A stretch of 64,000 nt of DNA. Origin: Eledone cirrhosa. Taxonomy: Eukaryota. Under the pieces are notes generated by a model that was not told where the DNA came from, did not search any database, and saw nothing but the letters and a program-made list of their open reading frames with translations. Each line of letters begins with the position of its first letter. The first letter of the stretch is position 1. The stretch spans positions 188,480,001-188,544,000 of the forward strand of contig OZ024740.1 in NCBI GenBank assembly GCA_964016885.1. The letters are read 5' to 3'. Shown here in pieces: positions 4,514-58,900 of this stretch. A program made the translations under genes and the position numbers.

Positions 4514-4938
4514 ATATATGTATGTATATATGTATATATATATATGTATGTATATATGTATATATATATATGTATGTATATATGTATATATATATATGTA
4601 TGTATATATGTATATATATATATATGTATGTATATATGTGTATATATATATATGTATGTATATATGTGTATATATATATATGTATGTATATATGTATATA
4701 TATATATATGTATGTATATATGTATATATATATATATGTATGTATATATGTATATATATATATATATATGTATATATGTATATATATATATGTATATATG
4801 TATATATATATATATGTATATATATATATATATATGTATATATATATATGTATATATGTATATATATATATATATATATATATATATATATATATATATA
4901 TATATATATATATATATATATATATATATATATATATA
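4514..4938. repeat. (TA)n/(TATG)n array
   Basis: Seen directly. Confidence 0.97.
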
Positions 4939-5160
4939 GGAACGAGTAGGACGCCGACGGCTGAGCTCAAGCCGTTTCTTCGGCTAATTCTGGACTAAAA
5001 AAAAAAGATTTTTTTTTTAGTCCAGAATTACCCGTCGAAACGGCTTGAGCTCAGCCGTCGGGGTCCTACTCGTTCCTATCACCCACTCTACTACCCTAAG
5101 TATTGAGTACTTTGGTGCGTTATGGTCCATCTGGTTTCTTACCACTTTTCCTTCGTTATA
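4936..5160 (+). mobile_element. Foldback element: about 144-bp inverted repeat plus about 80-bp unique tail, containing a hammerhead 3' half
   Basis: IR 4936-5079 with few mismatches; GAAA-CGGC-TTGAGCTCA-GCCG-TC at 5037-5059; tail homologous (reverse complement) to 58739-58806. Confidence 0.75.
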
Positions 5161-5451
5161 TATTATATAGTTTTCTGAATTGAGAGATCACAGCTCTGAT
5201 ACTATGAGCATGTGGTTAGAATGTCCCAGGAAAGGACAGGAAAGGATTGCTGGACAGATCGTGTGGACAAAATCAACTGGAAGGAAACCCAGAGGTGGAC
5301 CCTGAGCAAGATGGTTGGATAATATACACAAGCTTGGCTGGTTCCGCTTGGAGATCCAGCTGGATTAGTTGGAAAATAAATATTTTCCAATTAATTTTAT
5401 ACTAAATTAAGAATTTCCTGTTAGCTTTATTTAAGGATTAGGTATTATAAA

Positions 5452-5600
5452 TCTTTTACTGGTTTCACCCATTAGACTCTGGCCATGCCAGGGCATTGCT
5501 TTGAAGGGATGTAGTCAATCATATCAAACCATGTACTTATTTTTCAAATCTGGTACTTATGTTATTGACCTTGTTTGTCAAACTGCTAAGCTACAGGGTA
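5452..5600 (-). mobile_element. Decayed SINE (family C)
   Basis: TCTTTTACTGGTTTCACCCATTAGACTCTGGCCATGCCAGGGCA, similar to 1577-1650. Confidence 0.5.
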
Positions 5601-6994
5601 TAAATGAATATGCACACACACATACACAGGAACACTCACACACAAATGCATAAATACACACACACACACACACACATACATACATTGGTTATAATGAAGA
5701 AGAGAGAAATGCTCAATACATGATGTAGTGTATTTCTTTAGTTAATGCATTCTGCTATTACCCTACATTTCATAATTCTTCAATATATTTGATAAACCTG
5801 CTAGACTATTATGGAAGAAAAACATGCCTTAACTGCAAAAACCACAGAAGTGTAATTGGTTAACACACACCATAACTAAAAAAAAATATATATATATATA
5901 TGAGCAAGACAAGGTCACCCGAATTGGCACTGCCGACAACAGGACAACCCGTCTAATCCACGCTAGCATGGAAGAATGGACATAAAATGGTAATGATGAT
6001 GATATATAAGAGACCACAATACTTGAAATGACAGTAAAAACTCACATTTATCTTAAACCTTTGCTTGGATTTTCATGTTGGATTTCTTAATACCATCTGT
6101 ATATATAAATATATATTGCCATATGTTTGATTGTAAGACATTATGGATAAATGAATAAAGAAATGTGACAAAATTTATAATCTGCTGCAAGTGGTTTGCT
6201 ATATTTCTAAACACCTATCTCGCTGTAACTCAAATCAGTCTACAGCAGTAAATGTCAGGGAATCAGAGAAGGAACATTTTAAGCCTCATGCTTACCTTCA
6301 TAAACAACTGATACTGCTATGCTCTTTTCCTTGTTTCAATGAAAGGTTTGAAAAATGGTTTCTTAATATTATTGATTAAACAGTCCCAAATAAATTCAAA
6401 TTTGCACATTGTTGCTTTGGCTAATGGACATCACCATCGTCATCACCACCATTTTCATTATTTAACATCTATGTTCCATTATTGCATGGGTTACATGGGC
6501 TGTCATATTCTGAGGTTTGACTAGTCAGGTGATCATGTTTTGCTCATACATTCCATTTTTGGCTTGGTTTCTATGGCTGGATGCCTTTCCCCATGCTAAC
6601 CACTTTACAACATGTACTGGGAATATTTTATTGAGATTTCTGCACTACCACCTTACAGGTTAGACTGGGTTCTACTGTAGTGTCATCCGCACTACTGCTT
6701 TACTGTGCATATGTGTGTAAATGTAGCTGTGCATGTAGATATGTGTGTAGATGTATGCATGTATGTATAACTGTCTTTTCCTTCTTAATTTTTATATTTT
6801 ATTTAGAAAATAAATAAAGAGAAACAAACAGGTATTTTTCATTGTGGTATCAGCATCAACCATCTTTGTCAAATTTCTTTGCAACTGTCTGCAATGTTGC
6901 CTCCATAAGTATCTAGCATAAATAATAAATGCTGAGAATTGTTCTATTTTACAATTGACATTTAAGTTCATATTTCAGAAAAAACTAAAGGAAT

Positions 6995-7150
6995 AATGAT
7001 TTCTAGTTAAGGCACAAGGCCAGCAAGTTTAAGGGAAAATGAAGTTGACTAATAGTTTATTTTATTTAACTTAAAAAGATAAAAAGCAAAGTTTCTTCCA
7101 ATGGGATTTGAACTCATCATGTAAAGAGCCAGAACAAATACCACTATGGC
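6995..7150 (-). mobile_element. Decayed SINE related to family A
   Basis: AGGCACAAGGCCAGCAA ... AAAGCAAAGTT ... GGGATTTGAACTCA motifs in family A order. Confidence 0.5.
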
Positions 7151-8532
7151 ATTATTATGAATATTGAAATATAAAAGTGATGGCCTTCAGAAAGATTAAG
7201 TAATTCTGATTGGAAATGCTTTAATTATAATAAATCAGACTAAATGCTAGATATACTACAGGCCTCTCTTTATATGGGGTGGGGCTTGCAAAAATATACC
7301 TTTATTAAATTAATCAGGGCTCAAATAGAAACTGCTAGACACAGTGTAATTACTCTTGTATGGGTTGAAAACAATGATGTATTGGTTAGTTTTGAGTGCA
7401 CAACATTTTATTTTGTGGACTACCATATATAGAAAAGTTGTAGAAGTGTGCATGTGGGTGTTTTTATCATCAGTTTCAATGGTGTTGATTAAAGATGTGT
7501 AATGCTTTTTATTATTTCTTGTATTTTTGTCTTCTGGTTATGACATCTTTCAATTCTTGTTCCCTGTTTCACTTAATTTTCACAGTTGAAGCCAAGAGCA
7601 TAGCCAGCTTGATTCACCATTCTGCCAGTTATTTATCTTTCCAGCTGTTTCAATATTCATTTTGCCAACATGTCTAGATGTTTTGTTCATACATTTTTGT
7701 GTGGCTTTGTATGTGCATGCATATATAGGAACAGATGTACATACATATATGTGTTTTCATATATACATATTTGCATACATATGTACACAAATATCTGTAT
7801 ATCTAAATAGGTATGATCTGGTATAGACATACAAACTACATGATAAATTGCTGTCTAATGTAAGGTAACAGTAATAGTTGTTTAGTGTCAAGTTATGATA
7901 AACACAATTCAATAAAAGTGTTAATTAACACTAAGATTGGAAAAAGATAAACAACATAGCTGAATGTTTAATGAAAGTAGATGTTATAACACCTATCCAA
8001 CTCAGTGTTGAGCATTATGAATTTTGTCAGTTCAAACTCATTTAGTTTTAATGTAGGAATGTTAGCACATTTATACACATTATGATAATTCAAAGCACTT
8101 AATGCCAAGTAGTTATTCTCATGTTTGTATACTATAATAGATTCCAATTCAACAGTAATGATCAGCATTATGTAGTGTATTTAGATCTAACAAACTTCGC
8201 TATAAATTTGCTACTTCGCTATAAATGTGCTATCTGTTAGATATGCTGGATCAGATTTATTTAAACACTGCATCTTTTGTATAAGTCCAATTTAATTTGG
8301 AAAAGTTTGCTTGTTGTAAGTAAATGTGTATTATGTGGATATAGTTATGCATTATTTAGAAAGCTTAAATACATGAGCTTAGAATCTATAATATAAATTC
8401 AAGTAAGATTATGTTGTATTCAATTTTTTTGATAAGCTTATTTCATTATATTATCAAATGATATTGTTAAAAACACTGTTTTCTCTCAAAGACATTTTCA
8501 CAGCTAAATTACATTATTTCTCTATTGTTAGA

Positions 8533-57447: not shown

Positions 57448-57628
57448 GAGCCCCGACATGGACACACTGGAAGAGGAAGACCAAGGTTAACGTATGTTGA
57501 TGCCCTAAGGACAGACACTGGTCTGTTGGATCCACAGGACATGGCAGCGATAATGAGGGACAGAGACCGCTGGAGAGAACTCGTCCATGGATCTCGGGAA
57601 TTTTACCCGCCCTAGATAGATAGATAGC
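57448..57628 (+). mobile_element. 5'-truncated RTE-like LINE with (TAGA)n tail and TSD
   Basis: EPRHGHTGRGRPRLTYVDALRTDTGLLDPQDMAAIMRDRDRWRELV...*; TSD TACAYGTGTT at 57438-57447 and 57629-57638. Confidence 0.85.
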
Positions 57629-58249
57629 TACACGTGTTATAAACTGTTGACTAACTAGGGTTGCCATCATGCAACAGCCAGCATGATTTCATCAGACAGC
57701 ATCTTAAGTATTAAGGTTGTCTTCTCACATTTCTAAGCAGTGCAGGCTATCAACAAGGAGAGGGACGAATTTCATGCTGGTCCTATGAGAGTCCATCTTG
57801 ATAGATCTTATTGCCTTAAAATTGTTACATAGAAACCTTACTATTTAAAATGCTGTCTGATGTCATAATACTATTGACTGCATGATTACACCATTACGTA
57901 ATTATTAAAGCCACAGAAATATGTCTACAGCAGATTATGGATAAAATAAATTATGAATATCTACAGCTGACCCTTCCAATTATCATTACTTTGTGTGTGT
58001 GTATATATATATATATATATATATATATATATATATATATATATTGTTATATTTGGGGAGGGTCATATTTGCGTAATATTGCCAGAATTAATAACAGAAC
58101 ACACTCACTGTTTGGTTGGTTTTCGCTTCTCGCTGTCTTTTATATATATATATCTGCGATCTAACTTACTCGGTCCTCAATGTTGCCATTGACTGACCGG
58201 CGGTCAAAAATAATACAGATACAATATAGACAAACACATATATATATAG

Positions 58250-58292
58250 TTTACATAAATCTTTCGTTGCACATCTGCAACATCGTCAGTGG
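58250..58292 (-). ncRNA. Hammerhead core with perfect stem II, in an insert between TA tracts
   Basis: Minus strand CTGACGA-T-GTTGCA-GATG-TGCAAC-GAAA; stems I and III are not convincing. Confidence 0.55.
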
Positions 58293-58384
58293 TGTTATAT
58301 TCATTGTTCCTCCTGTTGTGTTGTATATATATATATATATATATATATATATATATATATATATATATATATATATACATATAT

Positions 58385-58733
58385 GGAGGTACATGGCTTA
58401 GTGGTTAGAGTATTGGGCTTGCAATTGTAAGGTTATGAGTTCAATTCTCAGACCGGGTGTTGTGTTGTTTCCTTGAGCAAGACACTTTATTTCACATTGC
58501 TCCAGTTTACTCAGCTGTAGAAATGAGATGATAGGAGTGGGGTCCCTATCATTCCATTGCAAAGTGGACGTGTAGGCGCCACGGAAAAAAGCACCCAGCA
58601 CTCACTGTAAATGAGGTTGGTGTTAGGAAGGGCATCCAGCTGTAGAAATCAAGCCAGAATCAGTTCCCGTCCTACCCATGCAAGCAGCGAAATGCGGACG
58701 TAAAATGATGATGATGATGATGATGATGATGAT
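58385..58733 (+). mobile_element. tRNA-derived SINE family B, full length
   Basis: A box TGGCTTAGTGG, B box GAGTTCAATTC, core, and RTE-like tail ending (GAT)n. Confidence 0.92.
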
Positions 58734-58738
58734 ATATA

Positions 58739-58900
58739 TATAAAACAAAGAGGGTGTGGTAAGATACCAGGTGGACCATTACGCATCAGAGTATTCAACA
58801 CTTAGGCTGAGCTCTGACTGTTTCGACAGCTAGGTCTGAAGTAAATTTAGTTTGGATCTAGCTGTCGAAACAGCCGGAGCTCAGCTGTCAGGGTCCTGAA
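58739..58900 (-). mobile_element. Foldback element homologous to 4936-5160
   Basis: Tail GTGGTAAGATACCAGGTGGACCATTACGCATCAGAGTATTCAACACTTAGG; IR 58806-58885; GAAA-CAGC-CGGAGCTCA-GCTG-TC at 58867-58889. Confidence 0.72.

Follow-up and report, generated by a model that had tools for sequence, protein, structure and literature searches.

Abundant hairpin-plus-tail stubs of two Penelope-like families, with a fold that likely marks the transcription start

Three short inserts in a 64,000-nucleotide window of Eledone cirrhosa DNA (the window being the whole stretch analysed) are very probably short terminal-repeat copies of two Penelope-like families with Hydra-clade motifs, each likely formed when two cDNAs, primed separately, were extended to the capped mRNA 5′ end and then joined head to head within a (TA)n target. 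What the fold likely marks is the transcription start rather than the ribozyme. Direct evidence comes from continuity with an RT/GIY-YIG open reading frame, two fixed outer ends, a wall of inner ends at one A and an extra G at that wall; the start site, the cap and an intron are deduced from DNA junctions only. The first-pass annotation was right that the inserts arose by reverse transcription. It attributed the fold to a cDNA snapping back on the stem II hairpin of a hammerhead, and this is not supported: the family B end map contradicts it as a general rule, and it leaves the extra G and the longer inverted arms unexplained.

Each insert is an inverted repeat plus a tail, at 4936, 31480 and 58739 as annotated, and CUGANGA is indeed absent from all three. 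The tails have TATTGAGTAC in common, in degenerate form in insert 3. A single family had been proposed, but two are present: inserts 1 and 3 are ∼77–86% alike, and insert 2 has no blastn match to either. In element coordinates (G of GAAA = 0), the inverted arm of insert 1 (family A; 4936..4996, minus strand) extends from +42, the inner RT start, to −18, the putative transcription start; the +42 end is fixed across the family A sample. The apex (4997..5018) consists of A10-G-A-T10 between the arms, which reflects either the addition of homopolymers or slippage at the TTT upstream of −18. A 70-nt Logan contig (run X2) spans 4981–5048 with two letters different, and covers one side of the apex by fewer than 31 letters. 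The tail-bearing arm (5019..5159, plus strand; −18 to ∼+122) displays, in order, a loop II remnant, the stem II 3′ strand, GAAA (5037–5040), stem III, the stem I 3′ strand and the tail, with hammerhead cleavage predicted after 5059. The tail itself (5080..5159, plus strand) is the ∼80–84 nt between the two fixed ends and carries GTATTGAGTAC, a predicted splice donor, at 5100–5110.

Insert 2 is a family B copy that ends ∼20 nt short of the usual B point. Its inverted arm (31476..31529, minus strand) extends from ∼+47 to ∼−4/−7, and its tail-bearing arm (31530..31638, plus strand) contains GAAA (31531–31534), stem III, UA, the stem I 3′ strand and a tail with GTATTGAGTAC at 31594–31604. Insert 3 is an older family A relative, with a tail-bearing arm at 58739..58846 (minus strand; ∼−21 to +122) that has a 40-nt deletion from +19 to +58, and a second arm at 58845..58909 (plus strand; ∼−21 to +42) with GAAA, stem III, UC and the stem I 3′ strand. 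The GAAA-stem III-UH motif attributed to every arm is found in all but the tail-side arm of insert 3, where the stem III 3′ strand and UH are missing because of the 40-nt loss. TA targeting was correctly recognized. Insert 3 reaches ∼58909, and on that side the TA tract has not survived. A CUGANGA scan detected no complete ribozyme in the window, and an Rfam search of the window gave no hammerhead among the best 150 of 222 matches (E up to 5), which comprise microRNA-type and other weak matches.

The inserts are real and very abundant stubs of Penelope-like elements. The 38-nt tail pattern of family A (4936, 58739) has 14,697 exact matches and the 31-nt pattern of family B (31480) has 11,904, with none for either reversed control. 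Searching with the tails, as had been suggested, leads to autonomous relatives: longer copies continue into a 717-amino-acid RT/GIY-YIG open reading frame, and this bears out the proposed Penelope-like origin. Full-length copies are arranged as repeat, 717-amino-acid open reading frame and repeat, and a tandem array has a period of 3,542 bp (∼3.54 kb unit). The family B sequence is followed by a homologous open reading frame start (51% identity over 67 amino acids). By eye, the 717-amino-acid sequence displays FDIESYY, YRDDG and VIYQ...AYIG motifs, i.e. RT plus GIY-YIG at the C terminus. It also contains SDKTG, CNCPDRSIC, CNLCSEE and LLNKK...CKH, which match the DKT, CxCX5C linker, CxxC and CxH of the Hydra clade around conserved E and N (PMC8557442), and RWR. 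Its Atlas neighbours, at 0.96–0.99, carry GIY-YIG, RVT_1 and HTH_animal on part of the members. Pfam and PDB searches of the protein gave no match, and Pfam on five open reading frame pieces of one locus (L032) gave only a weak GIY-YIG match, on a different neighbouring element. Among 20 loci picked for long open reading frames, pseudo-LTRs, partial tandems, an adjacent inverted 5′-truncated copy and the one-sided tail are present. Copies are inserted into (TA)n; no clear third hairpin-plus-tail family was seen among sampled loci.

The hammerhead identity of the partial motifs was correctly recognized, and the longer copies have complete type I hammerheads. That of family B reads AGATTC-CUGAUGA...GAAA-CAG/CUG-UA-GAAUCU, with stems I and II absent from its MFE fold. 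That of family A reads ACCCC-UUGAGAA...GAAA...UC-GGGGU and folds with three stems; its cores have U3:A8 or C3/A8, and the U3-A8 variant is already published (PMC4209133). In the tail region, GT...AG stretches, 64 nt long in family A and 62 nt in family B, represent a candidate retained spliceosomal intron of the 5′ UTR, with a predicted acceptor TAG at +124 to +126 in full-length family A copies. A spliced joint was not found in four Logan contig runs of unspecified kind.

When apices are mapped relative to GAAA, arm ends are not random but pile up at one A, which follows a TATA or TATA-like box by ∼30 nt. In family A, 101 of 173 ends fall in −25 to −11 and four in the next 15 nt upstream; in family B, 60 of 112 fall in −32 to −18 and two in the next 15 nt. 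Ends in family A are spread between −11 and −25, and a second peak lies at −21/−22. In seven of ten long family B copies, the distance from the start of TATAAATA or TATATATA to the downstream wall A (CC-A-GATT) is exactly 30 nt, and TATTTAAA starts 29 nt before TTT-A-GTCC in one family A locus (L183), the family A 'TATA' being weak in most subfamilies. Summed contig depth, which is not equal to copy number, rises ∼17-fold across the wall in run X2. The wall is 81–82 nt upstream of the shared GTATTGAGTAC in both families but differs in its position relative to the hammerhead. The earlier proposal that the ribozyme sets the position of the palindromes is thus not supported; the ends follow TATA+30. 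Nor does the apex lie as a rule where stem II should be: it is in loop II in family A and usually upstream of CUGAUGA in family B, where many hairpins keep this box. Because the putative start falls within loop II, the 5′ half of the family A hammerhead would be missing.

The outer ends are fixed at two places, +42 and ∼+122 in family A, which are used reciprocally. Full-length copies that end at +42 in direct orientation are joined by an inverted copy starting at +126 (L185, L188–L191, L200), and the reverse arrangement is also found (L183, L184, L186, L187, L195, L196). These direct ends of full-length copies show +42 to be a true cDNA start. Among 98 family A copies chosen by the tail alone, 72 are hairpins, three have a long inverted arm, two a long direct arm and 21 no inverted arm called, the last class still containing some missed inverted arms. 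In 23 of 75 family A copies and seven of 35 family B copies, the inverted arm outruns the tail arm in the upstream direction by 8 nt or more, although one of the seven (L237) is an alignment artefact. At four loci (L112, L114, L125, L145), inverted arms of ∼0.6–1.4 kb adjoin shorter tail arms. Later deletions within palindromes could account for part of the arm asymmetry.

A non-templated G precedes the wall A in 91 of 100 family B matches, compared with five of 100 at a −20 control that is dominated by one microhomology join (Fisher P 4e-39), and in 77 of 100 family A matches, compared with 13 of 100 at a −22 control dominated partly by a subfamily variant (Fisher P 1e-20). These counts were made by eye on the first 100 rows of 1,726 (B), 219 (B control), 3,236 (A) and 993 (A control) matches, and leave out a templated base by design. 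A script applied to sampled loci found G 13, C 14 and A 5 before the wall in family A and G 4, C 7, A 1 and T 1 in family B; many of the script-counted C come from the partner arm, and the G excess is weaker in the sampled loci. Both family A arms end at −18, with a spacer of 0–5 nt, in 1,014 loci. In the first 50 of these, C...G is found on both arms in nine (CAG, CTG, CG, CCAG) and on one arm in 15; six have no spacer, 17 only A/T and three other spacers. In full-length L1 insertions an extra G marks mRNA capping (PMC11702581), and by analogy the extra G at the wall A is taken as a cap signature. Self-priming via stem I is another possible source of an added C in family B.

In the proposed model, the sense transcript is capped and unspliced and starts at A(−18) for family A and at A(−25) for family B. 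The element protein, probably acting as a dimer, would bind the repeat at the transcript 5′ end and nick both strands of the TA tract, and one cDNA would be primed at each tail boundary. Each cDNA would halt at or before the cap, often with a C added opposite it, and the two 3′ ends would be joined blunt, via short microhomology or with a few added bases. Long or full-length copies would result from priming in the downstream repeat instead. More generally, it is probable that Penelope-like elements use fixed-site twin priming on capped, unspliced sense RNA to integrate, and that protein on the 5′ repeat leaves a double strong-stop stub whose junction records start and cap at single-base resolution, a smaller class recording in vivo ribozyme self-cleavage. 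Retroviral strong-stop DNA is a comparable known system, beside L1 twin priming.

An alternative, considered unlikely, is that one cDNA reaches the RNA 5′ end and, after folding or jumping back on itself, recopies to +42. Such self-priming was proposed for rotifer junction palindromes, there on an antisense template (PMC3846280). It retains the wall and the extra G, and would give subfamily variants common to both arms, which are found (87 pairs) and fit snap-back as well as twin priming; arm-to-arm differences do not separate the models, a −6 G>C excess in tail arms having come from the first query. However, where the spacer is 0–2 nt and the palindrome is complete to the last base, a junction offers no loop to prime from, and +42 also acts as a direct 3′ end. 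A recopied arm, moreover, cannot exceed its template arm unless the other arm is later deleted, so the longer inverted arms, up to 1.4 kb, count against any snap-back.

Snap-back on the stem II hairpin, with the ribozyme fixing the apex, is very improbable. The family A apex does lie 1–14 nt beyond the stem II 3′ strand, and at some joins stem I, stem III or AATT microhomology is employed. Yet many family B arms run past stem II and CUGAUGA to the first base of stem I, an end map that already contradicts this model as a general rule, and the family A cDNA never contains the stem II hairpin, as its 5′ strand is 30 nt past the wall; the extra G and longer inverted arms are also left unexplained. 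Ends at the predicted cleavage site are enriched (∼345 vs 63), which is in the model's favour; those at +23 may be either cleavage products or RT stalls at stem III, and a minor stub class may derive from ribozyme-cleaved RNA.

That the inserts are MITEs, Helentron-type non-autonomous DNA transposons or assembly artefacts is scarcely credible, despite their short, high-copy hairpin form and TA flanks, for inner ends vary by copy, a fixed tail offsets the outer ends, the sequence runs on into the RT/GIY-YIG frame, TA-joined ends at +42 and +122 recur in Logan contigs, and run X5, from another organism, also contains a fold-back contig. A MITE is a fixed unit of TIRs, constant interior and target site duplication, the last being unreadable inside TA tracts. 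Non-LTR retrozymes are tandem monomers, each with a complete hammerhead, whereas these copies are single head-to-head units.

The stubs have close published relatives. The inverted copy plus tail is a known Penelope architecture (PMC3846280, PMC8557442, PMC11167929); no publication was found that ties the apex to a transcription start or cap, most subscription papers lying outside the search. The closest known elements are the C-terminal EN+ Penelope-like elements of the Hydra clade (Craig et al., 2021, PMC8557442), including Hydra-1_Obim. They share a single open reading frame with C-terminal GIY-YIG, DKT, the CxCX5C linker, CxxC/CxH around EN, (TA)n insertion and a terminal-repeat hammerhead, and an inverted 5′-truncated copy is noted for Penelope-13_HM. 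In contrast, the unit here is ∼3.5 kb with a long 3′ UTR (the clade is generally <3 kb, a tendency only), RWR replaces RWK, the hammerheads differ from that listed for Hydra-1_Obim, and mass ∼200-bp double stubs are not described in the accessible part of that paper (PMC8557442). Penelope insertions with an inverted pLTR and a tail (Arkhipova et al., 2013, PMC3846280; Craig et al., 2021, Figure 2) also display a head-to-head copy, a one-sided tail and junction palindromes, but their tails are 30–40 nt as opposed to ∼80 nt. The junction here lies at the putative sense start and bears a cap-type G, evidence against the antisense self-priming suggested in that work (PMC3846280).

With Poseidon of Anolis, studied in vitro (Frangieh et al., 2024, PMC11167929), the stubs share two internal RT starts that bound the tail and an AT-rich target; Poseidon cuts both strands, has a predicted dimer and uses uncleaved RNA as main template. 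The available text of that paper does not treat the inverted junction or cDNA 5′ ends, and RNA reads ending at the cleavage site are not reported in it. In L1 twin priming, two primers at one target likewise yield an inversion, and an extra G signifies copying to the cap (PMC11702581). Here, unlike in L1, both primers are at fixed sites near the RNA 5′ end, so that the two arms are copies of one stretch and together make a palindrome.

How Penelope-like elements produce their inverted repeats and tails, and whether the RNA they copy is sense or antisense, are questions named as open in the literature (PMC3846280, PMC8557442). Tens of thousands of natural junctions here make them testable, and speak for two primers on a capped sense template. 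If this is true, the junctions inform on a genome scale about template polarity, about how inverted repeats and tails originate and about hammerhead activity, and the same junction test is applicable to any genome with such stubs. Annotation may also mistake the stubs, which are a large class of palindromes embedded in TA, for MITEs or microRNA hairpins.

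The three hairpin-plus-tail inserts near positions 4936, 31480 and 58739 are real, with corrections, but they do not form the single family of the first-pass annotation. Inserts 1 and 3 belong to one Penelope-like family (A), and insert 2 to another (B). In a search of the 3.0 Gb host genome, the family A tail pattern has 14,697 exact occurrences and that of family B 11,904. A separate high-copy repeat lies directly after insert 1 (5170-5234 of the window); public contig joints returning ~60 nt suggest that it is a tandem unit. Stubs of both families sit in one another's TA tracts, often back to back (loci L016, L017, L025, L028, L184, L185, L189), which is consistent with repeated targeting of one microsatellite.

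Endonuclease and reverse transcriptase (RT) coding sequence is found upstream of, and continuous with, some family A copies. A protein search detected 780- to 800-codon open reading frames (ORFs), as well as a tandem array with a 3,542 bp period. Twenty long-ORF loci display repeat-ORF-repeat units with adjoining inverted copies. A 717-amino-acid protein has no match in Pfam or PDB, and an Atlas search gave GIY-YIG, RVT_1 and HTH_animal neighbours. It carries DKT, CxCX5C, CxxC and CxH motifs, published marks of the Hydra clade (PMC8557442). At L207 and L227, the start of a homologous ORF comes after the family B repeat. Locus L032 (1190-3314) has a further element, apparently of a different Penelope-like family, whose GIY-YIG and RT-thumb-like ORFs sit in an inverted arrangement of 880 bp. 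The minus strand of L031 (1.1-4.1 kb) has a 100% identical 311-bp tandem array plus an inverted block, retrozyme-like or satellite-like and weakly matching the family A 3′ UTR. About 6.5 kb upstream of a family B copy at L234, a 375-amino-acid ORF fragment was judged by eye to be from a non-LTR (RTE-like) reverse transcriptase.

The insert architecture is known: an inverted 5′-truncated copy beside the element and a one-sided tail are standard for the class (PMC3846280; PMC8557442), and junction palindromes are ascribed to self-priming on an antisense template (PMC3846280). Because these are published traits, the hairpin-plus-tail shape is not new. In vitro, RT starts at two internal sites, and the tail lies between them (PMC11167929); Drosophila Penelope is described with promoter, start site and intron within the pseudo-LTR. 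What is new is a reading, from DNA junctions, of two cDNAs mapped to a cap; the literature searched, with most subscription papers outside it, yielded no start-site or cap interpretation of the Penelope fold-back apex.

Ends were mapped in 98 distinct family A copies and 77 family B copies, each from the first 100 tail matches listed, with the G of the hammerhead GAAA as 0. Nearly all of the 98 have +42 as the start of the inverted arm and a tail arm ending at +122 to +126. Inner ends pile up at an A, the wall. In family A, 101 of 173 fall in -25 to -11, four in the adjoining 15 nt upstream and eight in the whole of -146 to -26; in family B, 60 of 112 fall in -32 to -18 and two in the adjoining 15 nt. 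Long copies make up 17 of the 77. In each family the wall A follows a TATA or TATA-like box by 29-30 nt and precedes GTATTGAGTAC by 81-82 nt; this motif, rightly noticed as shared by the tails, may be a splice donor. At L138, two family A copies in direct tandem (6336, 6593) begin at -21 and extend through the tail to reach the 5′ end of the ORF, longer 5′-end copies with the same wall.

The first-pass annotation had the cDNA snap back on the stem II hairpin, the ribozyme setting the apex. The main apex is not set in this way: the wall lies within loop II in family A versus the first base of stem I in family B, so that many B hairpins retain CUGAUGA on one or both arms. Complete hammerheads, with CUGAUGA in family B and UUGAGAA or CUGAGAA in family A, are present in long copies of both families; UUGAGAA is a published U3-A8 variant (PMC4209133). 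For arms ending where cleavage is predicted (+23), 425 matches were counted; of the first 100 listed, 19 are longer copies whose run has one G more. The corrected number, ~345 versus 63 at control +20, does no more than hint at cleavage in vivo, since the control pattern has one CpG more and a stall at the stem III base would look alike.

In place of the snap-back, two cDNAs, one per arm, would derive from one RNA or source lineage, their junction mapping to the putative cap. Among 75 family A copies, the inverted arm goes further upstream by 8 nt or more in 23, the tail arm does so in 18, and 34 agree within 7 nt; four copies have inverted arms of ~0.6-1.4 kb. In full-length copies +42 and +126 swap roles, as direct end or inverted start. 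Subfamily variants are common to both arms of a copy, hence the single RNA or lineage.

The non-templated base next to the wall A, read by eye in the first 100 matches listed, is G in 91 (family B) and 77 (family A), versus 5 and 13 of 100, likewise read by eye, at control sites. In full-length L1 insertions such an additional G is a sign of mRNA capping (PMC11702581), and by analogy it is a putative cap signature at these DNA junctions. Both family A arms end at -18 in 1,014 loci; 24 of the first 50 have the additional base on at least one arm (e.g. C-A-G, C-G junctions), and C-A-G recurs in family B. Script counts in the loci examined go against the cap reading (family A: G 13, C 14, A 5; family B: G 4, C 7, A 1, T 1), and stem I self-priming could be the source of the added C in family B.

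In Logan contigs of sequencing runs, TA-joined loose ends occur at +42 and +122. One contig, with a margin under 31 bases on one side, covers the insert 1 apex, and one fold-back contig comes from a run of another organism. The best-matching runs may derive from the very sample that was assembled. A near-perfect, tail-less 160-bp palindrome in the window (55291-55450) is MITE-like, matches neither family and has a sub-threshold microRNA match in Rfam. Further perfect palindromes of 200-260 bp, also without tails, adjoin TA tracts at L155, L242, L229, L233, L011 and L165.
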